Origin: an uncultured bacterium
GTDB taxonomy: Bacteria; Omnitrophota; Omnitrophia; Omnitrophales; Aquincolibacteriaceae
Reading direction: 5' to 3'
Assembly: GCA_964385615.1 (NCBI GenBank)
Contig: CAYLPP010000008.1
Coordinates: 31,150 to 95,149, forward strand
Length of the DNA stretch: 64,000 nt
Shown here: piece by piece, positions 1-63,597 of the stretch
Position numbering within the stretch: position 1 is the stretch's first letter
Layout: the number at the start of each line of letters is the position of its first letter
Notes under the pieces: generated by a model
Databases searched by the model: none
Told to the model about the DNA's origin: nothing
Seen by the model: only the letters and a program-made list of their open reading frames with translations
Position numbers and translations under genes: made by a program

Positions 1-204
1 GAAGAAGTGATGGAAAAAATTCAGGGCATCCGCCTGGTCGGAATTTCATGGGGGGATGAACCGCTGGCTATGGTTGAGGATTCTTCCACTGGACGGACTT
101 ATTTTTTGAAGAAGAATCAGGAATTTCACGGCGTGAAGGTCCAGGAAATCCAGAAACAGAAAATTATCGTGACTTATGAAGGCCAGGAGGCCGAGCTGAT
201 CTGA
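1..204 (+). CDS. C-terminal fragment of a PilP/GspC-like secretin-interacting protein (5' end outside the window)
   Basis: The reading frame is open from nt 1. The C-terminal ~65 aa (IQGIRLVGIS...YFLKKNQEFHGVKVQEI...) matches the small beta-domain of PilP/GspC homology regions. Its stop overlaps the secretin start (ATGA). Confidence 0.5.
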   Translation, partial: EEVMEKIQGIRLVGISWGDEPLAMVEDSSTGRTYFLKKNQEFHGVKVQEIQKQKIIVTYEGQEAELI

Positions 205-1769
205 TGAGAAAGAAATACGCGTCATTTTTACTGGCGGTACTGCTGGCTGTTTCCGGTTTGCCGGCTTCCGTCTCCGCCGATGACGCCAATTCGCTTCCCG
301 CCCGGCTGGGGCTTGACCGCAATGCCGCGGGGCTGAATGAACGTATTACCCTGGACCTCCGCAATATGGAAATTACGGAAGCGCTTAAATTCCTCGCGCT
401 CAAAGGCAACCTCAATATGGTTATCGGCAAGAACGTGACCGGCCGTCTTTCGCTTTTCCTCACGGATGTCACGGTTGCCGATCTTTTGGAAATTATTCTT
501 CTGACGAATAACCTCGCCATCGCCAAGCAGGGCGATATTTACAACGTGATGACGGAAACGGAGTACCAGGCGCTTTACGGCAAGAAATACGCGGATGTCC
601 GGATGGCTAAGATTATGAAGCTTCGCTACGCGGTTCCAAGCCAGGTGTTTACCGTGCTTTCGGCTTCCAAAAGCGACATCGGTAAAGTAGTGATTGATGA
701 AGATTCCGCCACGCTGATTATGGTTGATACGCCTGACCGGATTGCTGAAATGGAGCGGATTGTCACTGAAATGGAAAAAGGCCAGAACATGAGGATTTTT
801 AACCTCCGGTTCGCCAAGGCGGCCGATGTTGAACTTCAATTAAAGGAAAGACTCGACGCCTTGAAGCTGGGGACGGTTAAGTCGGATGAGCGGAGCAATA
901 CTCTGGTGGTTACGGCTTTGTCCAAGAGAATGGAAGAAGTGGAGCGTATTATCCAGGCTCTGGACGAAAAGACCCGGGAAGTGCTGATTGAGGCCCGGAT
1001 TGTCCAGGTGACCCTGACGGACAGCTTTGATGCCGGGATTAACTGGCAGGAAGTGCTTCGTGACGCCGGCAATGAAATCGGCGTGGAGAAGTATATGCCG
1101 ACTTTCAGCGGGACCTTTCCTTTAAGAAGCACGGCAACCCAGTTCGGCCAGCTGGTCGTCGGCAATTCCGCGACTAACTCCTTCAGCGCCACCATGCAGT
1201 ACCTGCAGACGGTGGGGCAGACCAAAATTCTTTCCAGTCCCCGGATTACGGCCGTGAACAAGGAAGCCGCCCGCATTCTGGTAGGTACGCGCGAAGCTTT
1301 CGTAACCACGACCACAACGACCGGTCAGACCACTTCCACCACTGCTGAAAACGTGACTTTCGTTGACGTGGGTATTTCACTTGAAGTGACTCCCACGATT
1401 AATGACGACGGTTACGTTACCATGAAAATTAAACCGGAAGTTTCAAGTGTCGGGCGCACACTGGTGACTCCGACGGCTAACCAGATTCCGATTATTGATA
1501 CAACGCTGGCAGAAACCAGCGTCATGGTAAAAGACGGAACGACAATTGTGATCGGCGGGCTGCGCAAAGATCAAAAAGCCAAGACGGTCAGAAAAATTCC
1601 GATCCTCGGCAGTATTCCGATTTTGGGCGCCGCGTTCCGCGGAACACAGGAAGATCTGACGAAAGTCGAGCTCGTCGTTTTTTTGACGCCTTATGTCATT
1701 AACGGAGAAACGACTTTTACCGACCGCCAAATTCAGGACAAACAGCTCAAGCCATTTAAAGCGTATTAA
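204..1769 (+). CDS. Secretin (GspD/PilQ family) of a T2SS/T4P-like system
   Basis: It has a signal peptide (LLAVLLAVSGLPASVSA) and two Secretin_N-like domains. The C-terminal secretin signature is GTTIVIGGL...IPILGSIPILGAAFRG...VELVVFLTPYVI. Confidence 0.85.
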   Translation: MRKKYASFLLAVLLAVSGLPASVSADDANSLPARLGLDRNAAGLNERITLDLRNMEITEALKFLALKGNLNMVIGKNVTGRLSLFLTDVTVADLLEIILLTNNLAIAKQGDIYNVMTETEYQALYGKKYADVRMAKIMKLRYAVPSQVFTVLSASKSDIGKVVIDEDSATLIMVDTPDRIAEMERIVTEMEKGQNMRIFNLRFAKAADVELQLKERLDALKLGTVKSDERSNTLVVTALSKRMEEVERIIQALDEKTREVLIEARIVQVTLTDSFDAGINWQEVLRDAGNEIGVEKYMPTFSGTFPLRSTATQFGQLVVGNSATNSFSATMQYLQTVGQTKILSSPRITAVNKEAARILVGTREAFVTTTTTTGQTTSTTAENVTFVDVGISLEVTPTINDDGYVTMKIKPEVSSVGRTLVTPTANQIPIIDTTLAETSVMVKDGTTIVIGGLRKDQKAKTVRKIPILGSIPILGAAFRGTQEDLTKVELVVFLTPYVINGETTFTDRQIQDKQLKPFKAY

Positions 1770-23750: not shown

Positions 23751-23845
23751 CTTTTAAGAGTATTTCGCAATTTGTGATCAAGGCAAACCCCGGGTAACCG
23801 GGGGGCGCAAAGCCGTGCGTCCTTAACAACGAAAGGATAGGCAGG

Positions 23846-24439
23846 TTGCCGCAAATGAAAAACGATAAGACTGAAGCAACAGAAAAATTTGTCCACTTTC
23901 AAAACCGGAAAGCCGCGTGCTTTTTAAAGGCGCAGGCTTCTTCCGGTTTTTTTATTTTGCTTAGCGTTTTGTTTTTGTCGAGTCCTTCTGTATCTCATGC
24001 CGCGCTGGTAAGTGAGGATCCTGCTCCTATGCCGGCCGCGGCTTCCCAAGTTTCTCAAACAGCGCATAAGACTGCTTCCGCGCCTCAAAAAGTGAAATCC
24101 TCAAAGGTGCTGATCAAGCGCGGTTTGGCTCCGGCTGAGAAAGGCGCGAAGCGCAAAAAACTTCGCGGGCAAGTCGGCGCTAAAAATATGAATGGCATGG
24201 CGGTTGTTTTTGAAAAGGATGATGTTAAGCGTTCTTCGAAAGAAATGTGGTTCCCGTTTGGCGATGAAACTTATCTAGCTGATTACGAAACTCTCGACGA
24301 TGTCCAGGAAGGTGACGAAGTTTCGGTTACTTATGATGAATCCGCTGAAGGCGTGGTCCAACTTAAGGGGATTTCGCTGGTGCGTAAAGCGCCGGTTGAA
24401 GCTGAACAGTACGATCCCGAAGCTGAGGCTGAAGAGTGA
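23846..24439 (+). CDS. Small secreted/membrane-anchored hypothetical protein, translationally coupled to giant gene 2
   Basis: A hydrophobic segment GFFILLSVLFLSSPSVSHA|A lies after a basic N-region. The C-terminus is acidic. Its stop (TGA) overlaps the GTG start of the next ORF (GTGA). An alternative ATG start lies at 23855. Confidence 0.55.
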   Translation: MPQMKNDKTEATEKFVHFQNRKAACFLKAQASSGFFILLSVLFLSSPSVSHAALVSEDPAPMPAAASQVSQTAHKTASAPQKVKSSKVLIKRGLAPAEKGAKRKKLRGQVGAKNMNGMAVVFEKDDVKRSSKEMWFPFGDETYLADYETLDDVQEGDEVSVTYDESAEGVVQLKGISLVRKAPVEAEQYDPEAEAEE

Positions 24440-48136: not shown

Positions 48137-48382
48137 ATGTTCCGCGTTCTAATTCTTCTGGGCGAACCGGAAAAATCCCAAAACATTGTCTACGACGCTG
48201 AAGCCTCCAGTGTGTTTCTACCCGGAGCTGAGGGTGAATTCGAAATTCTCGACTTCCACAAACCTATTATGAGTTACCTGAAAGAGGGAACGATTGTGGT
48301 CGATAATGAGAAGGAGTTCAAAATCCGGGGCGGAGTGGTCAAAATGGGCGGTCAGAGCCTGGTCGCCATGGTGGAACGTTGA
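48137..48382 (+). CDS. atpC: F-type ATPase epsilon subunit, N-terminal beta-sandwich domain only (truncated, 81 aa)
   Basis: It aligns to the E. coli epsilon N-domain (GAEGEFEILDFHKPIMSYLKEGTIVV ~ [27 protein letters not shown]). The C-terminal helical hairpin is absent. Confidence 0.7.
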   Translation: MFRVLILLGEPEKSQNIVYDAEASSVFLPGAEGEFEILDFHKPIMSYLKEGTIVVDNEKEFKIRGGVVKMGGQSLVAMVER

Positions 48383-48591
48383 AAAACATTATCGTTATTG
48401 CCATTATGTTTATCGGAACGCTGGGGCCTTCCATGGTTATCGCGGCCGTGGGTTTTGCCAGCATCATGGCCCTGGGCCGTAATCCGTCGGCTTCACCCAA
48501 GATTATGCTGGCTATGATTATCGCTCTAATTTTCGCGGAAGCGATCGCCATTATCGCTCTGCTCGTCAGTTTTCAGGTGTTTACGCCATGA
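48379..48591 (+). CDS. atpE: F-type ATPase c subunit (proteolipid), H+-type
   Basis: A TTG start overlaps the atpC stop (TTGA). It forms a two-helix hairpin: Gly/Ala-rich helix 1, RNP polar loop (GRNPSASPK), and a conserved carboxylate in helix 2 (LIFAEAIAI). No Na+-site Q/ES/T residues are present. Confidence 0.75.
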   Translation: MKNIIVIAIMFIGTLGPSMVIAAVGFASIMALGRNPSASPKIMLAMIIALIFAEAIAIIALLVSFQVFTP

Positions 48592-48601
48592 GAGGAAATC
48601 T

Positions 48602-49351
48602 ATGATTGTGACGGTGATCGCGCTTCAGGGGATTATCTTTATCGTGCTGATTCTGGTTCTCCGCCATTTCATGAAGGGGAATCTGAGCGGAGCGATGGGA
48701 CACTTGCAGAAACTCAATGACGATCTCCTTAAACAGCAGGCGGAATTCAGGGAGAAATCCGCGGCTTCCCAAAAAGAATATGAAATGAAGCTTAACAAGC
48801 TTCAGCAGGATATTGCTTCCGAACAATCCCGCGCGCGGGAGGAAGCCAACAAGATGATTGAGGACACCAAGAAGCACGCTTTGGGAGAGCGTGAAAAAAT
48901 CATCAACGAAGCGGTGGAAACCCGCGAGAAAATGCGCAAGGAAATCATGAGTGAGATGGAGGAAAAGTCGATTCAGCACTCCAAAATCGTGATTTCTGAA
49001 TTTTTCAGCGGGGAATTGAAGACGCTCATTCACGAAGCGCTGATGGCCCAGGCTCTTGACGGACTTCAGAAAATTTCCATGGAGAATTTCCAGATTAAAG
49101 CTGATCAGGCGGCGGAATTACGGATCCCGGAACCGCTTAAGCCGGAAACCCGGGAAAAGATCCGAAAGCTTTTAAAAGAGAAGATTAAACGGGATGTAGA
49201 TCTTAAGGAAGAAACGGATCCGGCGCTGGTTGCCGGCATGATTATCCGGTTTGGAACTGTTGAAATTGACGGCAGTCTAACTAACCGCTTGAGTGAAGCC
49301 GCGGCCCGGCTGAAGAAAGAAAACGCCCGCCGCTATCAAGCAACGATCTAG
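48602..49351 (+). CDS. atpF: F-type ATPase b subunit fused to a delta (OSCP)-like C-terminal domain
   Basis: An N-terminal TM helix (IIFIVLILVL) and long charged helix are b-like. The C-terminal ...LVAGMIIRFGTVEIDGSLTNRLSEAA matches the delta/OSCP C-terminus (LIGGvvvrvGdkviDgSvrgrL). Confidence 0.65.
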   Translation: MIVTVIALQGIIFIVLILVLRHFMKGNLSGAMGHLQKLNDDLLKQQAEFREKSAASQKEYEMKLNKLQQDIASEQSRAREEANKMIEDTKKHALGEREKIINEAVETREKMRKEIMSEMEEKSIQHSKIVISEFFSGELKTLIHEALMAQALDGLQKISMENFQIKADQAAELRIPEPLKPETREKIRKLLKEKIKRDVDLKEETDPALVAGMIIRFGTVEIDGSLTNRLSEAAARLKKENARRYQATI

Positions 49352-49366
49352 TAACCGGGAGAAGGT

Positions 49367-50833
49367 ATGGGAAACGCCGCGGGAGTTGAAGTCCGTGAAG
49401 TCGGGTATGTGCGTGAAATCCGCGAGTCGATCGCCCGTGTAGAAGGTTTGCCCTCAGTCATGAACGGGCAGATTGTCCATTTCGGCCATGAATCGCGCGG
49501 AATGGTGATGGGTTTCAACGAGAAAGAAGTGCTGGTGCTTATGTTCAGCGGTAAAGAAAAGATCCGCGCGGGGGATCAGGTCTGGAGCCGCGGCGAACCT
49601 TTCTGCCTACCTGTAGGCGACAAATACATAGGCCGGATTGTCAGCGCACTTTGCGAGCCTTGTGATGGAAAACCTCCTATAGAACCGGATTCGGAAATTC
49701 CCGCTTTTAAAATGGCCCCCGGGGTTATGGAAAGAAAGCCGGTCTGCAGTCCTCTGGATACCGGCGTTAAAATTCTCGACGCGATTATTCCCGTGGCCAA
49801 AGGCCAGCGTCAGCTGTTGATCGGCGACCGTATGACCGGCAAAACGACGATCGCCATGGACACCATCATTAATCAGGCGGATAAAAACGTTATCTGCATT
49901 TATTGCTGTATCGGCCGCAGTTATTCCAACCTGCTGAAAGTCGTGGAAATTTTTAAAGAAAAAAATGTTTTCAATTATTCTCTGATTGTGGCAGCAATCG
50001 CTTCCGCTCCCGTAGGGGAACAGTTTTTAGCGCCTTACACCGCGTGCGCTTTAGGCGAGTACTTTATGAATCAGGGAAAGCATGTGTTCGTGGTTTTTGA
50101 CGACTTGACCAAACACTCCTGGGTTTACCGTCAGCTTTCGCTTCTGCTTGACCGCCCGCCAGGCCGTGAATCTTATCCGGGCGATATTTTCTACATTCAT
50201 TCCCAATTGGTTGAACGCGCCGGCCAGATGAGCGACGAAAACGGCGGGGGATCCATGACTTTCTTTCCCATGTGCGACACGCTTCAGGGCGATGTCACGG
50301 GGTATGTTCAGACGAATTTGATTTCCATGACCGACGGCCAGACGGTGATCAGCTCCGCGCTTTTTAACCAAGGCATTAAGCCTGCCATTGATTTTGGTCT
50401 TTCCGTTTCACGTATTGGTAACAAGGCCAGCGTGCCTGCCATGAAAAAACTGGCCGGCAAACTCCGCCTGGAATACTTGCAGTACAAGGAGCTGGTGCGT
50501 ATGACTCAGCTGAAAACGACCCTGTCTGAAGAAGCGGCCGCGCGTATCCGCCGGGGTGAAGTCATTACCGAACTTTTGATGCAGTACAAACATGAGCCGG
50601 CACCGATTGAAGAGCAGATCATCCACCTTTACGCGCTAAAGCTGGGGATTCTTGATCCTCTTTCCAACCAATTGCTTAAAAAGTTTAAAAAGGAAATTTT
50701 AGAATATGCCCGCAAGGAATTTCCGTCCGTCATGGCAGATTTATGTTCCAGCTGGGATTTGACGGACAGCGTGAAAAAGGGGTTGGAAGAAGTTTTTAAA
50801 AACTATATCGATAAAAACAAGGTTGTGATCTGA
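49367..50833 (+). CDS. atpA: F1 ATPase alpha subunit (divergent)
   Basis: The Walker A is GDRMTGKTTIAMDTIINQ (canonical GDRQTGKTAIAIDTIINQ). DDLTKHSWVYRQLSLLLDRPPGRESYPGDIFYIHSQLVERAG corresponds to the canonical [42 protein letters not shown]. Confidence 0.9.
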   Translation: MGNAAGVEVREVGYVREIRESIARVEGLPSVMNGQIVHFGHESRGMVMGFNEKEVLVLMFSGKEKIRAGDQVWSRGEPFCLPVGDKYIGRIVSALCEPCDGKPPIEPDSEIPAFKMAPGVMERKPVCSPLDTGVKILDAIIPVAKGQRQLLIGDRMTGKTTIAMDTIINQADKNVICIYCCIGRSYSNLLKVVEIFKEKNVFNYSLIVAAIASAPVGEQFLAPYTACALGEYFMNQGKHVFVVFDDLTKHSWVYRQLSLLLDRPPGRESYPGDIFYIHSQLVERAGQMSDENGGGSMTFFPMCDTLQGDVTGYVQTNLISMTDGQTVISSALFNQGIKPAIDFGLSVSRIGNKASVPAMKKLAGKLRLEYLQYKELVRMTQLKTTLSEEAAARIRRGEVITELLMQYKHEPAPIEEQIIHLYALKLGILDPLSNQLLKKFKKEILEYARKEFPSVMADLCSSWDLTDSVKKGLEEVFKNYIDKNKVVI

Positions 50834-51696
50834 TGGCCACTAAAAGTCTGGCCAAACTCAAGGCGGAAATGATTTTTAATGCCGACCTGACCCGTTTGGT
50901 TGACGTGATGAAAGGTGTGGCAACTTCCCAGTATTTCGTCATGGAGCATAAGCGGGTTCCTCTCGCGAAATACAGCGAAGCGCTTGACGAGCTTTTTAAG
51001 TTTTACGATTTCCGGAGCGTGGAGCATCCTTATGTCCGCGTGATGAGTGAAAAAAAACTGATTATCATGATCGCCACGGATTCAGGGTTCCTCGGCGGTT
51101 TGAACATGAAAGTCATGCAGGCAGGATTGGCTTTGGAATCCCCGGATACGAAATTCGCGGTACTGGGGGAAAGAGGAGCGACCTACTTGAGGGAATTGGG
51201 AAAGACGTTTGACGCGTTTCCCGGAATCTCTCCAGATGATTCGCGCTTTGAACTCCACAATAAACTCATCAGTTATATTTTAAAGTGCATTTGGGAAGAT
51301 GAAGTGGGGCGCGTGATCCTTGTCCATCCCCGCGCGATTTCTTTCACGGCTCAGAAAATCGATACGCTTAATCTTTTGCCGTGTCCGATGTTTTACAAAG
51401 ACAAGCCGGAAGATATGCCGGATCCTGTTCAGGTCGCCAAGGCCATGATCATGGATTCAAAACCGGAGGGAGCCATTGAGTATATGACCCTTTTCTGGCT
51501 TCGTAAGCGTCTGGTGCAGATTTTTGAAGATTCCAAATTGGCTGAATTCGGCGCCAGGACCATGCATCTGGAAGAGAGCTTCAATACCCTCAAAAACCTG
51601 GATAAACAGCTGAAATTGCAGTTTTTCAAGGCCCGCCGGGAGAAAATCGACCAAAGTCTCCGGGAAACCTTCACCTCCCAGATGGTCTGCAAATAA
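50833..51696 (+). CDS. atpG: F1 ATPase gamma subunit (divergent)
   Basis: It overlaps the atpA stop (ATGA), as expected by position. The N-terminal helix AKLKAEMIFNADLTRLVDVMKGVATSQY resembles the gamma KITKAMEMVAASK region, and the C-terminus is helical. Confidence 0.65.
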   Translation: MATKSLAKLKAEMIFNADLTRLVDVMKGVATSQYFVMEHKRVPLAKYSEALDELFKFYDFRSVEHPYVRVMSEKKLIIMIATDSGFLGGLNMKVMQAGLALESPDTKFAVLGERGATYLRELGKTFDAFPGISPDDSRFELHNKLISYILKCIWEDEVGRVILVHPRAISFTAQKIDTLNLLPCPMFYKDKPEDMPDPVQVAKAMIMDSKPEGAIEYMTLFWLRKRLVQIFEDSKLAEFGARTMHLEESFNTLKNLDKQLKLQFFKARREKIDQSLRETFTSQMVCK

Positions 51697-51718
51697 CCCT
51701 TTTTTTACCCCTCCGCCC

Positions 51719-51747
51719 TTGTGAAGTCTATGGGCATATGCTATATT
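51719..51747 (+). promoter_or_regulatory. Candidate sigma70-type promoter for the histidine kinase + atpD transcription unit
   Basis: TTGTGA (51719-51724), a 17-nt spacer, then TATATT (51742-51747), in the 146-nt gap after atpG. An AGAGGAA RBS lies 8 nt before the ATG at 51843. Confidence 0.4.
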
Positions 51748-51842
51748 TTCTTATACAGAGATTGACAAAGTTATTAAAAGATTAACTACGCAAAAAAACA
51801 GGAACTGTTCCATGGGTGTGTCACTAACCAGAGGAATTGTGC

Positions 51843-55123
<3,281 letters not shown>

Positions 55124-55181: not shown

Positions 55182-55607
55182 ATGGCGCTGAGAATTGGTG
55201 AATTACTTGTTAATAAAAAACTTCTGACGGTAGATCAGTTAGATGCGGCTTTGTCGGAGCAGAGCCGGTCAGGCAAGTTTCTCGGAGAAATTCTTGTCCA
55301 GATGGGCATGGTTCACGAAGAGGATCTGCTGAAAGTGCTGGCTGAACAATTCAATACGCACTTTGTGAAGCTTTCAGAAGTTCAGATTAACCCGGTCGTG
55401 GTCAAAATGGTTCCTGTGGATCTCGTGGCGGAGCATCATTTTATGCCGGTGGAAATGCGCAGCGGCATCATGCTGATCGCGGTTTCCAACCCCCTGGATA
55501 TGTGGCCCATGAGCGCTTTGCAGAAAAAACTTAACCTTTCGGACGTGCAGATTGTACTGGCGCAGAAGAAAGACATTCTTAACTGTATCCGGAAATATTA
55601 TGCCTAG
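55182..55607 (+). CDS. Stand-alone MshEN / T2SSE_N-like domain protein (putative c-di-GMP receptor)
   Basis: Two tandem 24-residue MshEN motifs, RLGxxLVxxGxLTxxQLxxALxxQ, are present: LRIGELLVNKKLLTVDQLDAALSEQ and FLGEILVQMGMVHEEDLLKVLAEQ. The protein is 141 aa and sits directly 5' of the GspE ATPase. Confidence 0.65.
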   Translation: MALRIGELLVNKKLLTVDQLDAALSEQSRSGKFLGEILVQMGMVHEEDLLKVLAEQFNTHFVKLSEVQINPVVVKMVPVDLVAEHHFMPVEMRSGIMLIAVSNPLDMWPMSALQKKLNLSDVQIVLAQKKDILNCIRKYYA

Positions 55608-55621
55608 GAACGGGGGACGAT

Positions 55622-57340
55622 GTGAGTGACCGGATTTCTGATGAACTGCTGAAAAAGAACCTGCTCAAAGAAGATCAGGTTAAAGAAGCGGAGGCGGAGC
55701 AGAAAAAGACCGGCGAACCGCTCGGAAAGATTCTTCTCCGGAAAGGTTATGTCCGGGAAGAAGATCTCGCCCGCGCGCTGGCCGAACAGTTTAAAATGCC
55801 GTTTGTCCGTTTCGGAAAATTTTTGATTGCTAAAGACGTTCTTGAGAAAGTTCCTGCCAAGCTGGCAATGCACTACAAGATGATGCCGGTGCGCGCCTCC
55901 GAAACCACCATGACGGTTGCCATTTCAGACCCCCAGGATGTCCGTGTTCTTGACGATATCCGCATCGCTTTGAAATCCAAATATAAAGTTGAGGCTGTTC
56001 TCGCGACTGAAACTGACATTCTGAATTCCATCCGGAAATATTACGGGCTGGGCGCTGAGACGGTCGAAGGCATTCTGCAGGCGGAGGATAAGTCCAGTAT
56101 TCCCGTGCCTGAAGCTGAAAATGAAGTCGAGGATATTGAAAAGCTGGCAGGAGATGCTTCGATTGTAAAACTGGTCAATCAGGTTTTGCTTGAAGCCTAC
56201 AAGAAACGGGCGACGGATATTCATATTGAGCCGTACCGCAGTAAACTTCAGCTTCGCTACCGCGTGGACGGCATGCTTTATCCCGCGGAAGTTCCGGATA
56301 ATATTAAACGGTTTTTGCCCGCGATTATTTCGCGCATTAAAATTATGTCGAACCTGAATATCGTGGAACGGCGTCTGCCTCAAGACGGCCGGGCTTCGAT
56401 TAAAGTCGGCGCTCAGAAAATGGATTTGCGTATCTCCGTTCTTCCGACTCCGCACGGGGAAAGCGTGGTTATCCGCATTCTGCCGACTTCCATGCTGATC
56501 CGTCTTTCCGACTTGGGCATGGATCAGTCTCAGCAGGATATTCTGGAAACCTTGATTCATAAACCTTACGGCATTATTTTTGTCACAGGTCCTACGGGCG
56601 CGGGTAAATCAACAACGCTTTACGCCTGCCTTTCCACCATCAATAAACCTGAAAATAAGATCATTACGATCGAAGATCCGATTGAGTATGAGTTGGAAGG
56701 CATCACTCAGATTCAGGTCATGCCCCAGATCGGGCTGACTTTCGCGCAAGGCCTTCGGAGTATGCTTCGCCATGACCCTGACGTGATGATGGTCGGGGAA
56801 GTCCGTGACTTTGAAACGGCCGAATTGGCCATCCGTATCGCGCTGACCGGCCATCTGGTTTTTTCAACCCTGCACACCAACGACGCGTCCAGCGCCGTAA
56901 CGCGCCTGATCGATATGGGGATTGATCCTTTCCTGGTGGTTTCCTCCGTGGAGTGTTTTATCGCTCAGCGCCTGATCCGCATGATCTGTGATAAGTGTAA
57001 AAAGGAAGATACGCGCACCATTCTTCCTGAGCTCAAAAAAGAAATTATGGAATGCCAGCGCAATACCAAAGATTTTAAACTCTGGATCGGCGAAGGCTGT
57101 GAGCACTGTAATTTTTCCGGCTTCAAGGGCCGTACGGGGATTCATGAATTCCTTCTGCTGACTCCGCCCATGAAAGACGCCATTATGAAAAAAGCTTCAG
57201 CCGACGAAATTAAAAAATTCGCGCTGGCTAACGGAATGCGGACTCTTAGGCAGTCCGGGTGGGACAAAGTTATTTTAGGGCAGACAACGATTGATGAAAT
57301 CATGCGTGTAACTCAGGTCGCCGGCGAAGAAGAAAATTAG
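55622..57340 (+). CDS. gspE: Type II secretion / type IV pilus assembly ATPase (GspE/PilB family) with an MshEN-like N-terminal domain
   Basis: A GTG start follows a GGGGGA RBS. The Walker A is GPTGAGKSTTLYA, with Asp and His boxes. The C-terminal tetracysteine is CDKCKK...CEHCNFSGFKGRTGIHE. The second MshEN motif (PLGKILLRKGYVREEDLARALAEQF) is intact and the first is degenerate. Confidence 0.9.
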   Translation: MSDRISDELLKKNLLKEDQVKEAEAEQKKTGEPLGKILLRKGYVREEDLARALAEQFKMPFVRFGKFLIAKDVLEKVPAKLAMHYKMMPVRASETTMTVAISDPQDVRVLDDIRIALKSKYKVEAVLATETDILNSIRKYYGLGAETVEGILQAEDKSSIPVPEAENEVEDIEKLAGDASIVKLVNQVLLEAYKKRATDIHIEPYRSKLQLRYRVDGMLYPAEVPDNIKRFLPAIISRIKIMSNLNIVERRLPQDGRASIKVGAQKMDLRISVLPTPHGESVVIRILPTSMLIRLSDLGMDQSQQDILETLIHKPYGIIFVTGPTGAGKSTTLYACLSTINKPENKIITIEDPIEYELEGITQIQVMPQIGLTFAQGLRSMLRHDPDVMMVGEVRDFETAELAIRIALTGHLVFSTLHTNDASSAVTRLIDMGIDPFLVVSSVECFIAQRLIRMICDKCKKEDTRTILPELKKEIMECQRNTKDFKLWIGEGCEHCNFSGFKGRTGIHEFLLLTPPMKDAIMKKASADEIKKFALANGMRTLRQSGWDKVILGQTTIDEIMRVTQVAGEEEN

Positions 57341-57347
57341 GTGAGCC

Positions 57348-58595
57348 ATGAGATTTATCTATAAGGCGAAAAAAGGGCCGTCCGAAGTCGTTGAAGGCGA
57401 GCTGGATGCCGAAAACGAAGAAGCGGTTCTTGGAAAAATTTCAGCCTGGGGTCTGATTCCCATCCGGATTTATCCTGCTTCCGCTGAAGAAGCCCAGAGG
57501 ATTTTAGGTTCAACCGCCTCGGAGCGGGCCGAAATAAAAGCTGAAAACCGTAACCGGGTCACGGTTCCTTATAAAGAAATCAATATCTTTACGCGCCAGT
57601 TTGCCATCCTTCTTAAAGCCAGCGTGCCTCTGCTGAGGATTTTTGAAATCCTTCAAAGCCAGAGCCGGAATCCAAAATTTAAAACAGTGCTGAAAGAAAT
57701 TCAGGATACCCTGCGCCAGGGCACGGCTCTTTCGGAAGCGCTTTCTCATTATCCCCGGATTTTTTCGCAAGTTTACATCAGCATGGTTCACGCGGGCGAG
57801 GTTAGCGGTACTCTGGATCAGGTTTTACTCCAGCTTTCAGAATTTGCTGAGAGGGAAGCCGAAGTCCGCGCGCGGGTTCAAAACGCTTTTGTGTACCCGC
57901 TTTTCCTTCTTGCGATGGGCATCGGCACGGTATTCGTTCTGCTGACTTTTGTCATGCCCCGCATGATCAGCCTTTTCGCGGATCTGGGCACGGAGCTTCC
58001 AGGCCCGACCCGTGTGATTATTGCTATTAGCAATTTTTGTCAATCTTACTGGGTTTTTATGATCGCGGGGACGGCGGTTTTAATTTTTCTGCTCCGCTCG
58101 AAGGGGTTGAGCACGGCTCAAAAAAGAAGCGTGGATAAAACCGTTATTCGTTTGCCCATTCTGGGAGCCTTAATGGAAAAAGCGGAAGCTTCAAAATTTC
58201 TCCGTTCTCTGGAACTTCTTTATGAACATGGGATCCCGCTTTATCAGGCGGTCGCGGTCGCGAACCGGACGGTTTCAAATTTGGCGGTGCGGGATGAGCT
58301 GGAAAAAGTTCCGGCCCGTCTGGAAGGAGGCGCGACGCTGGCCCGAAGCCTGGAGGAAGTTCCCTACATTTCTAAATTTGTAACGCATATGGTCGCGGTG
58401 GGCGAAGAGTCAGGGCAATTGGGAACGGCCGTGCGTGAAACCGCTTCTTTTTATGAACAGGAAACCAATCAGATGATCAAAGTCGCGACCTCTTTGCTTG
58501 AACCCCTCATGATTCTTGGAATTGGTCTGGTTGTCGGGTTTATCGTGATCGCGATGCTTCTGCCGATTTTCGAGATCCATGTCCTCGCTCAATAA
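57348..58595 (+). CDS. gspF: Inner-membrane platform protein (GspF/PilC family)
   Basis: It has two T2SSF-type repeats and three TM segments. Its position after the ATPase is conserved. Confidence 0.85.
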   Translation: MRFIYKAKKGPSEVVEGELDAENEEAVLGKISAWGLIPIRIYPASAEEAQRILGSTASERAEIKAENRNRVTVPYKEINIFTRQFAILLKASVPLLRIFEILQSQSRNPKFKTVLKEIQDTLRQGTALSEALSHYPRIFSQVYISMVHAGEVSGTLDQVLLQLSEFAEREAEVRARVQNAFVYPLFLLAMGIGTVFVLLTFVMPRMISLFADLGTELPGPTRVIIAISNFCQSYWVFMIAGTAVLIFLLRSKGLSTAQKRSVDKTVIRLPILGALMEKAEASKFLRSLELLYEHGIPLYQAVAVANRTVSNLAVRDELEKVPARLEGGATLARSLEEVPYISKFVTHMVAVGEESGQLGTAVRETASFYEQETNQMIKVATSLLEPLMILGIGLVVGFIVIAMLLPIFEIHVLAQ

Positions 58596-58986
58596 TAAAG
58601 GATTTACTCTCGTAGAGGTTTTGACCGCGGTGACTGTGCTGGCGGTCGGGTTGGTGCTTGTGGTCCAGGCGATGGGACGTACTCAGCAGGCCGTGCGTCT
58701 TTCCGAAAACCTCACCGCTGCTTCTCATATTGCTGAAGAGCAAATCACCCGCCTGAAACTGGCCGACCGCGAGCGGGGAAAACCCGGCTATGGTGAAGAC
58801 GGCAAGCAGGAGTACCTGGGCCGGGAGTTTAGCTGGGCCAGCAGCGTTGAGCCTTTTACACGCGCGGACGTGCATGAAGAAGACCAGATCAGTCAGATTT
58901 CCGCCGAGGTTAAATGGCAGGAGGCCGGTGTTGAAAAAAATCTGCGCGCGGTTTCACTGGTTACGCACCGGAAGAGCTTTTCATGA
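58579..58986 (+). CDS. Minor pseudopilin (GspH/GspI-like) with type IV prepilin leader
   Basis: NKG|FTLVEVLTAVTVLAVGLVL has G at -1, F at +1, E at +5 and a hydrophobic N-terminal helix. Confidence 0.75.
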   Translation: MSSLNNKGFTLVEVLTAVTVLAVGLVLVVQAMGRTQQAVRLSENLTAASHIAEEQITRLKLADRERGKPGYGEDGKQEYLGREFSWASSVEPFTRADVHEEDQISQISAEVKWQEAGVEKNLRAVSLVTHRKSFS

Positions 58987-59651
58987 AGAATCCCCGCGGT
59001 TTTACCCTAATCGAGACTCTTCTTGCGGTCACTCTTTTTATGATTGTCATGGTGTCCGCCTACAGCGTTTTTCATATGGGAATTCAGATATGGAAGCGGG
59101 TCACTGGCGCGCTGCCCGTGCAGAGATTGGCGCTGACCGCGCTGGAAAGAATGGGGGAGGATATTCGATCCATCCAGCCTATCCAGCCGGCGCCCAAAGG
59201 GGTTGTGATCGTTCAGAAGAAGCATGATTTTAAATTCCAGGGATCTGGAGAATCGTTTCTCATGTCCGCGATTCTGCCCGTTCAGGATTCTTCGGGCGCG
59301 GATTCTTTTCAAGCCGGAGGTCTTGGGTACGCTTTTAAATCTTCAGCCGGTGAACTTTGCCGGATGACACAGAACGCGTCTCAGCTTTACGCCGGCGAAG
59401 AACCCTCCTGCAGGGTGATGCTTTCGGGGATTCAGAAACTTCATTTTCAGTATTGGATTGAAAATCCAATCACTAAAAGTTTTTCCTGGTACGATGCCTG
59501 GGATACTTCCGAAAGTCTTCCTCAGGCCTTCCGCGTGGAAATGGAAATTAAAGTCAAGAGCCGGAAAAACGCGGAACCGCTCCGGTTTGAGCGTACTTTC
59601 TGGGTACCTTCAGGCGATCAAGCGATGACCGTAGATTCGGGGGCCGCATGA
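58983..59651 (+). CDS. Minor pseudopilin (GspJ-like) with prepilin leader
   Basis: PRG|FTLIETLLAVTLFMIVMV has E at +5. It is 222 aa and overlaps its neighbours by 4 nt. Confidence 0.7.
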   Translation: MKNPRGFTLIETLLAVTLFMIVMVSAYSVFHMGIQIWKRVTGALPVQRLALTALERMGEDIRSIQPIQPAPKGVVIVQKKHDFKFQGSGESFLMSAILPVQDSSGADSFQAGGLGYAFKSSAGELCRMTQNASQLYAGEEPSCRVMLSGIQKLHFQYWIENPITKSFSWYDAWDTSESLPQAFRVEMEIKVKSRKNAEPLRFERTFWVPSGDQAMTVDSGAA

Positions 59652-60661
59652 ATCTTACCGCGGGCCGGCAGCAGGGCAGTGTGCTGGTGGCCGTACTTTG
59701 GCTATTGGCCATGATGGGTGTTTTCGCCATGGCCGTGACACGGCAGGCTTCGCAGGAACTTCTTTTCGGCCAATGGCTGAGGGACCGGGTGCTTGCCAGA
59801 AATCTGGCTGAAGCCGGTATTGAACGCGCGTTAATCGAACTTCGCCACGATAAGTTTAAAGTTTTTGACTCGTTTCAGGAAACCTGGGGATCGAACCCGA
59901 AAGCGTTCAGCCATATTTCGCTCCAGGCAGGAACTTATTCAGTGATCTGTGAACAGGATGGAGAAACGCTCTACGGCGCCTGTGATGAATCCGGACGGAT
60001 TAACATTAATAAAGCTTCTCCGGAAATTCTGAAAAATTTGATGATGGCGGCGGATTCCGGCATCGGCGAGGATAAAGCTTCGGCGATTGCTGACGCGATC
60101 GAAGACTGGCGGGATGGAAACGATGACCGCTCCGATCATGGCGCGGAATCCTCCGAGTATCATTCACTGAAGAAACCTTATGAAGCGCGCAACGGAGATC
60201 TGGAATCAGTCGAAGAACTTAATATGGTGATGGGGATGACGCCTGAACTTTTCCGGAAGATCCGGCCGTACGTGACTGTTTACACGGATGGGAGGATTAA
60301 TTTTAATACGGCGCCCAAGGCGGTTTTCAGGGCCCTTGGGCTTTCAGAAGTTCTGGCCGGAAGGCTGGTCGATTTCCGCAAAGGCGCGGACGGCATGACC
60401 GGCACTCTGGACGATGAGGTGTTTCAGGATACGGCCCAGATTCTCCCGGCTTTAAGCGCGGGAGGTAACTTTTCGGGAGAAGATTACTCTCAGCTTTCCA
60501 ACGCGCTCAGCCTGGGTTCGGCATCGGTCACTTCCGGTGTTTTTAGAGTTAATGCTATGGGGAGCTTAAACCGTGAGGCCCGAAAGACCGATACATGGAT
60601 AAGCTGTGTCATGAAACGTGACGGAACCATTCTAAGCTGGAGAGAAGGCCGTAATGCCTAA
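59648..60661 (+). CDS. gspK: Minor pseudopilin GspK-like
   Basis: The N-terminus is QQGSVLVAVLWLLAMMGVFAMAV. GspK characteristically lacks Glu+5 and starts G-(S/V)-(A/V)-L-L-x-V-L-W. It is ~337 aa, with helix-hairpin-helix-like segments. Confidence 0.7.
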   Translation: MNLTAGRQQGSVLVAVLWLLAMMGVFAMAVTRQASQELLFGQWLRDRVLARNLAEAGIERALIELRHDKFKVFDSFQETWGSNPKAFSHISLQAGTYSVICEQDGETLYGACDESGRININKASPEILKNLMMAADSGIGEDKASAIADAIEDWRDGNDDRSDHGAESSEYHSLKKPYEARNGDLESVEELNMVMGMTPELFRKIRPYVTVYTDGRINFNTAPKAVFRALGLSEVLAGRLVDFRKGADGMTGTLDDEVFQDTAQILPALSAGGNFSGEDYSQLSNALSLGSASVTSGVFRVNAMGSLNREARKTDTWISCVMKRDGTILSWREGRNA

Positions 60662-62219
60662 GATGGCGATGCCCAAGTTGAGTCTGCCGAAATTTCGGAT
60701 GCCTCCTTTGTCTTTTAAAGGAGGCAAACTGCCCGGATTTTTTTCTCTGGGGCCAGTCGGTAAGACGGCGCTGGCCATTGAAATCGGTGAAGACTGGCTC
60801 AAGCTCGCGGCCGCCGCTGAAACGGGGAAAAACGAAAGAAAAATTCTTTGGACCGCCTGCGAACCTTCGCGGGATATTGATGCTTTTTCGCTTGCTTTAA
60901 AAGTCGCGCAGATCGTGAAATCTCATCATATGAAACCTTCACGTGTTCTGGTTTCATTTCCATCCCGGCATTTGACGACGCGCATTCTTTCACTGCCCTC
61001 CACGGATCCCGTGGAAATCGCCGATATCGTTTCGCTTCAGGCCGTAAAGCAAACTCCTTACGCGCGCGAAGAAATCACGGCCGGGTATCATAAAATTGAC
61101 AGTGATGCTTCAGGCTATTCCCGGATTTTTCTCGCGATCGCGCACCGCGACCAGCCTTCCCAGTATTTCCGCACGGCAGAAATGGCGTTTCTTCTCCCCG
61201 ATCAAATCGTTCCGGCCGTTGAAGGCCTGCGATTTTGGACAAAAATCGTTTTTGAGAGTGAGGCGGAAAAATCACAGGAACCGGTATTGATTCTTGAAGT
61301 GGACGAAGCGGTGACGGAACTGCTTGTGGTTGCCGGAAATAATATGATTTTTACGCGCGGTCTGGGGATTGGGTCCAAACAGCTTCAGGAGCAAGCCGGG
61401 ACGATTGAGCCGGAATTCCTGCGGGAAGTCCAACGGTCTCTGGAATCGGATGAAACCCTGAAACAGACTCGAATTTCCAGGATCATTGTGACGGGTGTTT
61501 CCCAGGCTTCTAAAACGGCCGCTGCCATTTTAAGCCGTGAAATGGATATTCCCTGCGAAGTCCTGCCGTGTTTTGAGCCGGCCAGGAAATCTTTTGCCGA
61601 TGACGCGGCTGAAAGTATTTCCAAAAGCCCGGTTTCTTTTGCCGCGCTGACCGGACTCCTTCTTTCGCCGGAAATTTCTGAAATCAATTTGATGCCGGAC
61701 GATGTCCGCCTGCGTAAAGGCCTTGAGCAGAGAGCGCGCGAGCTGGCTTTCATGGGAACGCTTCTGCTGACCATTGTCATGCTGGGATCTTTAATCGGTT
61801 TCGAGAAAATTTACAAACGGACTGTGTATCTGGATTATTTGAAAAAAGAATACGCGGCGGTGCGCGCTCAGGCGGAAGATGTGGAACGGCTGATCGGGAA
61901 AATTAAACTGGCGGCTGAGCAGACGGGCGGAAAAACAGACTTTCAGGAAGTTTTGTTTGATATCAATACCGTGCTTCCAGACAGCCTGATTCTGACTTCC
62001 ATTGATTACAATGACCGGGAAAAAACGGTGCTGATCCGCGGAACGGCGCGTGAAATGTCTTCGGTGTTTCAGTTTCTTTCAACGCTGGAATCCACGCCCA
62101 GTCTTGAGCAGGTAAAGACGAGGAATGTGACCAAGCGTAAAGCGGGGGAGCAGGAAGTCTCGGAATTCGAAATCGCGGCGGTTTTGGCCGCGGAGAATTC
62201 CGAGGGAGGCAAGCCATGA
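60654..62219 (+). CDS. GspL-like / PilM-PilN fusion (cytoplasmic actin-like domain + TM + periplasmic domain)
   Basis: It has a ~350-aa cytoplasmic domain and a single TM (LAFMGTLLLTIVMLGSLIGF). The periplasmic PilN/GspL-C-like domain includes ...VLFDINTVLPDSLILTSIDYNDREKTVLIRGTA... Its position precedes the PilO/GspM-like gene. Confidence 0.65.
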   Translation: MPKMAMPKLSLPKFRMPPLSFKGGKLPGFFSLGPVGKTALAIEIGEDWLKLAAAAETGKNERKILWTACEPSRDIDAFSLALKVAQIVKSHHMKPSRVLVSFPSRHLTTRILSLPSTDPVEIADIVSLQAVKQTPYAREEITAGYHKIDSDASGYSRIFLAIAHRDQPSQYFRTAEMAFLLPDQIVPAVEGLRFWTKIVFESEAEKSQEPVLILEVDEAVTELLVVAGNNMIFTRGLGIGSKQLQEQAGTIEPEFLREVQRSLESDETLKQTRISRIIVTGVSQASKTAAAILSREMDIPCEVLPCFEPARKSFADDAAESISKSPVSFAALTGLLLSPEISEINLMPDDVRLRKGLEQRARELAFMGTLLLTIVMLGSLIGFEKIYKRTVYLDYLKKEYAAVRAQAEDVERLIGKIKLAAEQTGGKTDFQEVLFDINTVLPDSLILTSIDYNDREKTVLIRGTAREMSSVFQFLSTLESTPSLEQVKTRNVTKRKAGEQEVSEFEIAAVLAAENSEGGKP

Positions 62220-62764
62220 ACCCGAAAGTTATTTTTGACAAGCTTAAACCCCGGGAAAAGAAAATCCTGTACGTGGTTCTCGCGCTCTTGGTGCTTTTGC
62301 TTGGTTATCATGGTGTCTGGACGCCGATGACCGAAAAGATCGGCACGCTGGATGATGAGATTTTTACGATGGAGATGAAACTGCGTAAAGCCAAAATCCT
62401 GATCCGCCAATCGGCTGAGGTCCGGGCGGAGACCGAAAAGTACGTGAATTTAGATCAGCTTAACGCGGTTTCTGACGAAGAAGAAACCGCCAGGCTTCTG
62501 AGCCTTATTGAAGAAACAGCGCGTAAAACCGGATGCTCACTTTCAGATGTGAAGCCGGAGGCCGTCAAGACCGATAAATGGACCAAGCGTTTTCAGGTTG
62601 AGCTTTACACGGAATCCAGCATGGAACAGCTGATTTCTTTTGTTTATGAGCTGGAACATTCGCCTCAGATTTTAAAAATCGAACGGGTTACGGCGTCGCC
62701 GAAAGAAGAAAAGTCGCCCACCCTTCGATCTCAGCTGACAGTCGTCAGAACAGTTACAACATGA
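62216..62764 (+). CDS. GspM / PilO-like bitopic membrane protein
   Basis: It has a short cytoplasmic N-terminus, a TM (ILYVVLALLVLLLGY), a coiled-coil and a periplasmic alpha/beta domain. It is 182 aa and overlaps the preceding gene by 4 nt. Confidence 0.6.
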   Translation: MNPKVIFDKLKPREKKILYVVLALLVLLLGYHGVWTPMTEKIGTLDDEIFTMEMKLRKAKILIRQSAEVRAETEKYVNLDQLNAVSDEEETARLLSLIEETARKTGCSLSDVKPEAVKTDKWTKRFQVELYTESSMEQLISFVYELEHSPQILKIERVTASPKEEKSPTLRSQLTVVRTVTT

Positions 62765-62780
62765 TTAACCGGAGGTTTTT

Positions 62781-63218
62781 ATGACAGCAATGTTTACAGA
62801 CAGAAATCGCCAGAGAGGGTTTACCCTGATTGAGATTCTCCTGGTCGTGATTATTATCGGGATTCTGGTTTCCCTGGTTGCGCCTCGTCTGGCCGGGCGT
62901 TCTGAAGAAGCCCGTAAACAGGCGGCCAAAGCGGATATCGACGGAGGTATCGCGCTGGCAGTGGATATGTATGAAGTCGACAATGGCCGGTACCCGTCTC
63001 AGCTTGAAGACCTGATTGCTAAACCCGGTGACGCCCCCAACTGGAAAGGCCCTTATATGAAAAAAGGCGTTCCCAAGGATCCCTGGGGAAGCGGCTACAT
63101 TTACCGCCGTCCCGGCAATCACAATACGGAAAGCTATGATCTGTCTTCTCCCGGTCCCGATAAGCAGGCGGGCGGGGAAGATGACATTGTCAACTGGGCA
63201 GGAACCGGTAAAAGCTGA
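62781..63218 (+). CDS. gspG: Major pseudopilin GspG
   Basis: It aligns near end-to-end with canonical GspG: RGFTLIEILLVVIIIGILVSLVAPRL...AKADIDGGIALAVDMYEVDNGRYPSQLEDLI...PKDPWGSGYIYRRPG...GPDKQAGGEDDIVNW. Confidence 0.9.
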   Translation: MTAMFTDRNRQRGFTLIEILLVVIIIGILVSLVAPRLAGRSEEARKQAAKADIDGGIALAVDMYEVDNGRYPSQLEDLIAKPGDAPNWKGPYMKKGVPKDPWGSGYIYRRPGNHNTESYDLSSPGPDKQAGGEDDIVNWAGTGKS

Positions 63219-63219
63219 C

Positions 63220-63597
63220 ATGACACCTAAAACTGTGCTGGTGATTGATGATGAAGTGCTGATCGGCGAGCTTGTCTGCGATTATCTTGCGTCTCTGGGG
63301 TTTAAGGCTTTTGCCGCTCAATCCGCGGTGGAAGGAATCAGTTTAGTTAAAAAAGAAAAACCGGATCTGATTCTTCTGGACGTTCTGATGCCTCAGGTTG
63401 GCGGGATCGAATGTTTGAAGGAAATTAAAATTGAACGTCCGGAGAGTATTGTGGTGATGGTGACGGCGGTTCATGATGAGAACACGGCCAAGCAGGCGAT
63501 CACAAGCGGGGCTTACGATTACATCACGAAGCCGATTGATTTTCAGTATTTAAAAGAAAACGTTCTCGCCCGGGTTTTCCCGGATTTTATTCCCTAA
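63220..63597 (+). CDS. Single-domain response regulator (CheY-like REC only)
   Basis: VLVIDDEVLIGELV...PDLILLDVLMPQVGGIECL...VVMVTAVHDE...YITKP carries the acid pocket DD, the phospho-acceptor D in LLDVLMP, and T/K. The ORF-track version from 63136 overlaps gspG, so the ATG at 63220 is preferred. Confidence 0.8.
   Translation: MTPKTVLVIDDEVLIGELVCDYLASLGFKAFAAQSAVEGISLVKKEKPDLILLDVLMPQVGGIECLKEIKIERPESIVVMVTAVHDENTAKQAITSGAYDYITKPIDFQYLKENVLARVFPDFIP

Follow-up and report, generated by a model that had tools for sequence, protein, structure and literature searches.

How can cyclic di-GMP (c-di-GMP) act on a secretion ATPase when the domain expected to sense it is encoded in a gene of its own? 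The question is raised by two adjacent genes in a stretch of 64,000 nucleotides (nt) of contig CAYLPP010000008.1 (assembly GCA_964385615.1), from an uncultured bacterium of the phylum Omnitrophota; this whole stretch, 64 kb long, is referred to below as the window. A small protein consisting of an MshEN domain is encoded directly upstream of a GspE/PilB-type ATPase whose own N-terminal MshEN domain has lost part of its ligand site. Since sensor and motor are as a rule parts of a single chain, it is still little understood how c-di-GMP bound to MshEN alters a secretion or pilus ATPase. The answer considered here, which we regard as about evenly poised between right and wrong, is that the 141-residue protein is the c-di-GMP-sensing MshEN module of a type II secretion- or pilus-like machine, encoded as a separate subunit that acts in trans on the ATPase. 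A sequence-only reading of the same DNA had described the small protein as a duplicated MshEN module and had proposed that c-di-GMP sensing was off-loaded to it.

The two open reading frames (ORFs) were read again from the sequence and stand where that reading had placed them. With the motifs discussed below, they are:

55182..55607, + strand: ORF for the stand-alone MshEN protein (free copy), 141 amino acids (aa); four-helix MshEN_N bundle and T2SSE_N1-like alpha/beta subdomain
55191..55262, + strand: motif I of the free copy, residues 4-27, RIGELLVNKKLLTVDQLDAALSEQ; R1, h2, G3, L17, L21 and Q24 present, position 10 Lys, not Gly
55278..55349, + strand: motif II of the free copy, residues 33-56, FLGEILVQMGMVHEEDLLKVLAEQ; Phe for the first Arg, remaining key residues kept
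55488..55514, + strand: family signature NPLDMWPMS of the free copy, residues 103-111; invariant in a 32-homolog alignment, with W108 invariant in a broader set too
55622..57340, + strand: GspE/PilB-type secretion ATPase, 572 aa; N-terminal MshEN at residues 1-143, T2SSE core at 176-562
55631..55702, + strand: motif I of the ATPase, decayed, RISDELLKKNLLKEDQVKEAEAEQ; Gly3 to Ser, Gly10 to Asn, Leu17 to Val, Leu21 to Glu
55718..55789, + strand: motif II of the ATPase, retained, PLGKILLRKGYVREEDLARALAEQ; 6/6 key positions here, 4-6/6 in orthologs

The shorter ORF starts with ATG, has GGAGAGG ahead of it and ends in TAG; the ATPase ORF starts with GTG, 14 nt past that stop and in another reading frame. 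The free protein is a member of Pfam MshEN (PF05157; E = 2.6e-15, 56.6 bits against a cut-off of 23.1 bits), a model that spans the C-subdomain alone (residues 58-141 of the free protein). The ATPase matches Pfam T2SSE (E = 6e-131) and MshEN (E = 3.5e-17) and has a Walker A motif (GPTGAGKST); among NCBIfam models it scores 580 bits with GspE (cut-off 630) and 580 with PilB (cut-off 676), under both equivalog cut-offs. The whole of the free protein aligns with ATPase residues 1-142 (41% identity, E = 9e-30), a likeness far above chance: it is a stand-alone paralog of the ATPase N-domain. Its AlphaFold2 (AF2) model (predicted local distance difference test score 89.9) has helices at residues 5-11, 17-30, 34-40 and 46-56, followed by a beta-alpha unit, and the top Foldseek match is Vibrio cholerae MshE with c-di-GMP (PDB 5HTL; template modelling (TM) score 0.88, root-mean-square deviation 1.7 Å, E = 1.4e-11). 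It is followed by GSPII-B of Thermus PilF with c-di-GMP bound and then by the N-domain of Xanthomonas PilB in complex with PilZ. Pfam score, two-subdomain fold, motif register and 5-residue spacer are thus all those of an MshEN domain. The ratio of nonsynonymous to synonymous substitution rates (dN/dS) between orthologs of the gene is 0.05-0.15, with dS saturated, and the free protein is therefore taken to be a real gene under purifying selection. The earlier description of a free-standing MshEN beside a GspE-type ATPase is confirmed.

Could the free copy bind the ligand? The MshEN consensus consists of two 24-residue motifs, RLGxxhhxxGhhxxxxLxxxLxxQ, separated by a 5-residue linker, with R1, L2, G3, L17, L21 and Q24 of each motif contributing to binding (Wang et al., 2016; PMC5013675). 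A gapless alignment pairs R9/L10/G11/L25/L29/Q32 of motif I of MshE (5HTL) with R4/I5/G6/L20/L24/Q27 of the free copy, and R38/L39/G40/L54/L58/Q61 of motif II with F33/L34/G35/L49/L53/Q56, so that 11 of the 12 key c-di-GMP contacts of V. cholerae MshE are kept, the twelfth being Arg38, replaced by F33. The departures from the consensus are this F33 in motif II and, in motif I, K13 at the position of the turn Gly18 of MshE; each motif fails at one position the relaxed search pattern of the same study ([RKPN]hGxxhhxx[GAS]hh...; PMC5013675). Aligned with a verified MshEN domain, then, the free copy does carry all but one of the key ligand residues, and calling both motifs intact was slightly overstated, K13 and F33 being non-canonical.

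Among 32 homologs (55-100% identity), G6, L20, L24, Q27, L34, G35, L53 and Q56 do not vary, at least 90% have R4, F33 is nearly invariant, and Lys stands at position 10 of motif I in most members. The conserved solvent-facing positions are the ligand contacts of 5HTL. A hydrophobic first residue in motif II has a precedent in the GSPII-B domain of PilF, which binds with a dissociation constant (KD) of 6 nM with Leu196 at this position: L196R binds 4-fold more weakly, K167L, which changes the matching residue of motif I, lowers the KD to 2 nM, and the consensus has been extended to hydrophobic first residues (PMC11731258, PMC12002112). The replacement of Arg by Phe at F33 is taken as tolerated because GSPII-B has its hydrophobic Leu196 there. 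The family signature may lie close to the same site: its N103 and D106 align, by a mapping with a +5 offset that is our own reading, with D108 and D111 of MshE, the only C-subdomain residues close to the ligand (PMC5013675). Within the signature, W108-P109 sets apart the free copies, along with a sister lineage's intact fused domains, which are described below.

The ATPase copy differs in its first half-site. Motif I reads R4, I5, S6, N13, V20, E24 and Q27, motif II P33, L34, G35, G42, L49, L53 and Q56; as the sequence-only reading had it, the second motif is kept and the first degraded, with Gly3, Gly10 and Leu21 lost from motif I and the key residues of motif II present. Across the 11 distinct window-clade orthologs besides the window, position 3 is S, R, K, E or I, never Gly, and position 21 is E, R, T, K or Q, never hydrophobic. 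The N-domain therefore has one intact half-site (motif II) and lacks Gly3 and the Leu17/Leu21 cluster of the other. Since this paralog keeps the fold and yet has neither Gly3 nor Leu21 in any ortholog, the fold alone does not enforce the motif residues. In MshE, G11L leaves no detectable binding, G40I is 72-fold weaker, and L29A, like single Leu-to-Ala changes, is more than 10-fold weaker (PMC5013675); the GSPII-A domain of PilF, in which a near-perfect motif is paired with a decayed one, is a non-binder of c-di-GMP (PMC11731258, PMC12002112). These mutational precedents suggest that the fused copy may have lost c-di-GMP binding. Its N1 subdomain is well conserved, including FIRFGKFLI and VPAKLAMHYKMMP. 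The 53-residue NCBIfam 'c-di-GMP_motif' model NF053729 (cut-off 38 bits) was tried as a separator of binders from non-binders and proved uninformative: the free copy scores 71.6 and the ATPase copy 52.3 bits, and both the free family (32/32) and the fused-copy orthologs (10/10) pass. Generic MshEN and 'c-di-GMP motif' models thus do not tell binding-competent from decayed copies.

The pair is conserved. For the free protein, 48 homologs were found (141-153 aa, 55-100% identity), and genome scans, metagenome scans and contig look-ups give 12 distinct window-clade loci, the window included, in metagenomes and in Omnitrophota metagenome-assembled genomes (MAGs); those relatives that bear a name belong to Candidatus Omnitrophota (Ca. 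Taenariivivens baikalensis and Omnitrophica/Omnitrophota MAGs), in keeping with the two giant ORFs of the window and with what has been published on the phylum. The gene order common to these loci is atpA-atpG-(histidine kinase)-atpD-MshEN-gspE-gspF-pseudopilins-pilMN-gspM-gspG. The free copy has 6/6 key positions in each motif in every window-clade pair, and the contrast between an intact free and a decayed fused copy holds in 12 distinct window-clade pairs and in 4 pairs of a sister lineage. The junction between the MshEN gene and gspE measures -4, -1, 6, 11, 14 or 179 nt within the window clade, in differing frames, and -4, -1, 3, 6, 11, 14, 35, 80, 106 or 179 nt across at least 16 loci, with stop/start overlaps of 1-4 nt in four (L008, L013, L019, L023; loci are referred to by number). 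No terminator-like site was found between the two genes. Upstream, atpD is present in L001-L005, L008, L010, L012, L013, L062, L069 and L078.

How the two copies came to stand side by side can be approached from the wider set of loci. Metagenomes were scanned with the ATPase N-domain, and every MshEN in 97 loci was scored with a hidden Markov model of the free family. Four architectures appear at one locus:

State A: no free MshEN; own MshEN intact, W-P type; no PilZ (L028, L032, L050)
State B: free MshEN; own motif I decayed; no PilZ (window clade)
State C: free MshEN; own MshEN decayed; C-terminal PilZ (L062, L069, L078)
State D: no free MshEN; own MshEN decayed; C-terminal PilZ (L054)

The state A loci, together with L040-L042 and L046, have a single ATPase of 554-559 aa whose own MshEN is intact (6/6 and 5-6/6). 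The W-P signature of the free family (DPLAVWPME) stands on the fused MshEN of ATPases of this type, and in L028, L032 and L050, where upstream sequence is present, atpD is directly upstream and there is no free copy. Four distant loci (L058, L062, L069, L078) have an intact free MshEN directly upstream of an ATPase with a decayed site (1-3/6 and 4-5/6). Three of them (L062, L069, L078) keep the atpA-atpG-atpD synteny upstream and encode ATPases of 705-729 aa with a C-terminal PilZ. ATPases of the form MshEN(decayed)-T2SSE-PilZ, 705-735 aa long, occur in L048, L054, L056, L062, L069 and L078, with RxxxR and [DN]xSxxG of the PilZ domain intact. Another fused version of the free-copy type is found in a representative library: P0102 (559 aa) is a T2SSE ATPase whose only N-domain is free-type (EFLG, NPLDVWP), with Cys at the last position of motif I.

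A neighbour-joining tree of the ATPase cores unites all atp-linked ATPases in a single clade (80% bootstrap), within which the window and PilZ-bearing clades form a subclade (76%). In a neighbour-joining tree of 78 MshEN domains, the free copies fall together, next to the intact fused domains of L028 and L032 and apart from the N-domains of their own neighbours; the free-copy clade has 100% and the fused clade 87% bootstrap, and their parallel branching indicates old, co-inherited paralogs. A recent tandem duplication was considered and rejected, the free copies grouping with each other and with the sister-lineage intact fused domains and not with their neighbours' N-domains. Of the 'duplicated MshEN module', then, the paralogy stands, at 41% identity, and a recent local origin does not, on a tree whose deep nodes are weak. 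A decayed own site is found in 16 of 17 distinct ATPases with an upstream free copy, against about 10 of 30 without one. Read as a Rosetta-stone argument, the four states suggest that the free protein works with the ATPase and that the c-di-GMP input may be kept while the receptor module moves. The proposal that sensing was off-loaded to a separate subunit gains comparative support here: orthologous loci are either fused and intact with no free copy, or decayed with a free copy, a PilZ domain or both.

Is c-di-GMP signalling to be expected in such an organism? Elements of c-di-GMP type are present in the window and elsewhere in the phylum. The one in the window is:

23773..23854, + strand: c-di-GMP-I-GGC riboswitch aptamer of the GEMM-I clan, matched over its full length by Rfam RF03167 (model positions 1-80; 64.9 bits, gathering score 59; E = 4.7e-13)

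It lies 31 kb upstream of the pair in the same co-directional array, and is followed without a gap, on its 3' side, by the start codon (ATG, 23855) of a small ORF, which in turn overlaps the beginning of a giant gene (7545 aa), a position suggesting that the giant-gene operon may be under translational control by a cyclic dinucleotide. In an Omnitrophica MAG (L016), the neighbours of a distant free MshEN include PilZ and EAL proteins as well as a canonical c-di-GMP-I riboswitch (14049-14138, minus strand), and the study of West-Roberts et al. (2023; 10.1101/2023.11.21.568195) describes pilZ genes as conserved near giant genes of Omnitrophota. Because of these three observations, c-di-GMP signalling is plausible here; the sister-lineage ATPases with intact PilZ motifs are counted as further context. 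The MshEN of L016 is one of four distant stand-alone proteins (L014, L015, L016, L017; 35-38% identity), three of which, all but L015, have the W108 signature; their contexts are a position after a secretin/tetratricopeptide repeat (TPR) cluster, one by glnA-amtB-PII, the PilZ, EAL and riboswitch locus of L016, and one upstream of a PEGA protein and a GT2 glycosyltransferase.

Taken as a sensor in trans, the free protein would bind one c-di-GMP across its two 24-residue motifs, as its residues and fold suggest. In the liganded form it would dock on the secretion ATPase, or on the platform formed by the ATPase and GspL/PilM, through its N1-like subdomain and the NPLDMWPMS patch, and the docking would set ATPase recruitment or activity, with whichever sign the regulation may have. 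Operon coupling and the existence of a fusion state point to action on the ATPase or its platform; the link to ATPase function is drawn because a sister-branch ATPase carries a fused, intact W108-P109 domain that is sister to the free copies. The patch N103-S111, next to the ligand site, would be the likely ligand-sensitive contact, although this is speculative. The ATPase's own MshEN, with its first half-site lost, would probably serve as a structural docking domain alone. The role in trans would then be that of the fused MshEN in MshE and PilB, and of the extra MshEN domains in Thermus PilF. A wider and rather doubtful version of this reading is that the free receptor and the decayed ATPase MshEN form a heterodimer of paralogs, a ligand-gated clutch, and that together with the cyclic-dinucleotide riboswitch ahead of the giant surface-protein gene it would belong to one 'attack/attachment' regulon, by which giant proteins would be made and exported in a coordinated way and which has a physical link to the ATP synthase operon, in a broad Omnitrophota-like group.

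Several observations weigh against the sensor in trans. The deep nodes of the MshEN-domain tree have less than 60% bootstrap, and the counts that associate free copies with decayed sites are not phylogenetically independent: they amount to about two lineages and one exception. In one pair (L020) both copies are intact, and L054 has the same locus and a PilZ-bearing ATPase but no free copy. The riboswitch of the window belongs to the GGC variant class, which has reportedly been proposed to sense, possibly, a different dinucleotide. A look for diguanylate cyclases and phosphodiesterases, named in the sequence-only reading as a check, drew a blank: a motif scan and Pfam found no GGDEF, EAL or HD-GYP protein within the 64 kb window, and likewise no PilZ protein. 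The free protein itself has Lys at the turn Gly of motif I. On the side of the ATPase, the passing of NF053729 by all ten fused copies means that it may retain some binding. Motif-based prediction is also fallible: when the consensus was restored in GSPII-A of PilF, binding was still absent (PMC11731258, PMC12002112). What the motifs say is thus a hint, for either copy, and not decisive.

What else might a free MshEN do beside this ATPase? One possibility, already raised in the sequence-only reading as competitive regulation, is a decoy or brake: mimicking the docking domain of the ATPase, the free protein would compete for the GspL/PilM-like platform or cap the ATPase, and block assembly in one c-di-GMP state, instead of activating it. 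Over its full length it is paralogous to the ATPase N-domain, down to an N1-type subdomain of the kind that binds GspL in type II secretion systems (T2SS; PDB 2BH1), and the conservation of the N1 subdomain of the ATPase (FIRFGKFLI, VPAKLAMHYKMMP) means that both could aim at the same site. This seems unlikely nonetheless: the conserved surfaces of the free family (FNT[HR]FV, MPIEMR, NPLDMWPMS) are unlike those of the ATPase N-domain, which speaks against simple mimicry through one interface, and the same type of domain is the sole N-domain fused to the sister-lineage ATPase, which fits a working part better than an inhibitor. A second role in assembly, quite improbable in our judgement, would be that of a ligand-independent structural adaptor that binds no nucleotide and keeps its motif residues for helix packing or protein contacts. 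The GSPII-A domain of PilF, a near-consensus MshEN that does not bind for reasons invisible in the motif, is a precedent, and the Lys at position 10 of motif I in most free-family members would fit; however, the conserved positions coincide with the solvent-facing ligand contacts of 5HTL, the co-located paralog of the same fold let its motif positions drift, and the best structural match of the AF2 model is ligand-bound MshE.

The position of the gene allows a different partner altogether: as the last gene of the atp cluster, where epsilon usually sits, it might couple c-di-GMP to F1 activity and not to secretion. Its junction with atpD, overlapping or with a 2-nt gap in six loci (L001, L005, L008, L012, L013, L062), is as tight and conserved as that with gspE, and the epsilon gene, which heads the cluster here, encodes a subunit shortened to its N-domain (81 aa). 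The adjacency of atpD and gspE nevertheless survives where there is no free copy (L054) and where the domain is fused (L028, L032, L050), so the domain follows the secretion ATPase; we know of no link between MshEN and an ATP synthase, and consider this account very improbable. Least credible, and close to negligible, is an artefact, either a frameshift or assembly split of a tandem (MshEN)2-T2SSE gene or a decaying remnant ORF. ATPases with (MshEN)2-4-T2SSE architecture do exist (P0075, P0079, P0182), and the gap is only 14 nt; but the split is found in at least 16 independent assemblies with varying junction length and frame, and each copy has its own start and ribosome-binding site, with dN/dS at 0.05-0.15. 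The diversity of junctions and the dN/dS rule out a frameshift, an assembly artefact, programmed read-through and a pseudogene.

The neighbours of the pair in the window are mostly those of a T2SS-like machine:

204..1769, + strand: secretin GspD, at the head of the same co-directional array (Pfam Secretin, E = 3e-48)
53714..55123, + strand: atpD, beta subunit of the F0F1 ATP synthase (573 bits with NCBIfam TIGR01039, cut-off 463)
57348..58595, + strand: GspF/PilC platform protein (Pfam T2SSF, E = 3.9e-60)
58579..60661, + strand: three minor pseudopilins, GspI-, GspJ- and GspK-like (Pfam N_methyl, T2SSI, T2SSJ, T2SSK_1st)
60654..62219, + strand: PilM-PilN fusion, GspL-like, a single 521-aa protein (Pfam PilN, E = 4.8e-11; PilM_2, E = 1.4e-5; NCBIfam pilM)
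62216..63218, + strand: GspM/PilO-like protein and major pseudopilin GspG (Pfam T2SSM; T2SSG, E = 5e-29)

GspD, F, G, I, J, K and M are thus accompanied by a PilM-PilN fusion, which is conserved in all related loci and is presumably the docking partner of N1-type domains, as in the complex of EpsE N1 with EpsL (2BH1); 2BH1 stands at rank 23 of the Foldseek matches to the free-protein model. The secretin gene is 53 kb upstream of gspE-gspG, with a TPR protein, the giant genes and the atp cluster in between, and the long non-overlapping ORFs from 204 to 63597 all lie on the + strand. The giant ORFs, both on the + strand, are at 2862-19130 (5422 aa) and 24436-47073 (7545 aa); the second consists of dozens of repeats of about 85 aa (SPNGGE.W.VG...I.W...G....VK.EYS), and the GC skew over 26-48 kb is flat (about 0), unlike the rest of the window.

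The ATP synthase genes (48137-55123, + strand) have the unusual order epsilon, c, b-delta fusion, alpha, gamma, beta; the epsilon gene at the head encodes the N-domain only (81 aa), and no a subunit was found near the cluster. The synteny between atp genes and secretion ATPase is deeply conserved, being found also in L008, L012, L028, L032, L050, L054, L062, L069 and L078, with frequent stop/start overlaps. A Mycoplasma-type enzyme or an 'alternate' N-ATPase recruited to secretion was considered and rejected, since alpha and beta pass the ordinary F0F1 equivalog cut-offs; the cluster is treated as a housekeeping enzyme in unusual synteny. A PAS-HisKA-HATPase histidine kinase lies between atpG and atpD (51837-53711, + strand) in the window and in L001, and is absent from L002, L004, L005 and L008. 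A single-domain response regulator at 63136-63597 closes the secretion cluster.

How does the arrangement compare with systems already described? V. cholerae MshE (5HTL; PMC5013675) has the same two-subdomain fold with a 24+5+24 motif in register, but its MshEN is the N-terminus of the ATPase chain and not, as here, a protein of its own with 141 aa; further differences are Phe for Arg38, Lys for Gly18 and, in the free family, the invariant NPLDMWPMS patch. Xanthomonas FimX-PilZ-PilB (7LKM/7LKN/7LKO) resembles the proposed arrangement in that a separate c-di-GMP sensor docks, through an adaptor, on a non-binding, MshEN-like PilB N-domain. The Xanthomonas N-domain matches the free-protein model with TM 0.76-0.79. 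The sensor of that system is a degenerate EAL domain, and its PilZ adaptor does not bind the ligand. Here, by contrast, the putative sensor is itself paralogous to the docking domain and the window has no FimX- or PilZ-type gene (no EAL, GGDEF or PilZ protein), so that the likeness is functional only. Several MshEN domains per ATPase occur in Thermus thermophilus PilF and other (MshEN)2-4-T2SSE proteins, and in PilF GSPII-B and -C bind while GSPII-A is decayed (PMC11731258, PMC12002112; Supplementary Table 4 of PMC5013675). Like the free copy, the high-affinity domain of PilF has a hydrophobic first residue in motif II. In PilF-type ATPases all domains are on one chain, whereas here a stop codon, a 14-nt spacer and a change of frame put the putatively competent and the decayed domain on two polypeptides, and this split is conserved. 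By analogy, the closest relative in cis is the multi-MshEN arrangement of PilF and the closest in trans is FimX-PilZ-PilB.

Among small proteins, Pseudomonas aeruginosa PA3740 is essentially one MshEN module and is listed as a c-di-GMP binder (PMC5013675); its N1 subdomain is highly diverged, unlike that of the free protein, and no pairing with an ATPase has been described for it. For the phylum, West-Roberts et al. (2023; 10.1101/2023.11.21.568195) report gspD/E/F and pilin genes next to genes that are several thousand codons long; in those passages that a search by terms brought up, the MshEN pair, the atp synteny and the riboswitch are not mentioned. MshEN-alone proteins are abundant: the domain has 29,265 representatives, many of 145-205 aa among the top matches and in several contexts. 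They are numerous, yet missing from the published architecture list, since the table of Wang et al. (PMC5013675) includes no complete stand-alone MshEN. A literature search found no paper on a complete stand-alone MshEN paired with a decayed-MshEN ATPase, and nothing characterised beyond PA3740. What is known is thus the MshEN module and its role with c-di-GMP; what appears to be new is the arrangement, with the sensor split off beside an ATPase whose own MshEN has decayed.

If the free protein is indeed a sensor in trans, the conserved split between sensor and motor would let binding, docking and control of the ATPase be measured apart, on two small soluble proteins, and the intact-fused, split and PilZ-bearing versions of one locus are built-in comparisons. 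It would also be the first regulatory handle on the T2SS-like machines that stand by the giant genes of uncultured, probably host-dependent Omnitrophota.

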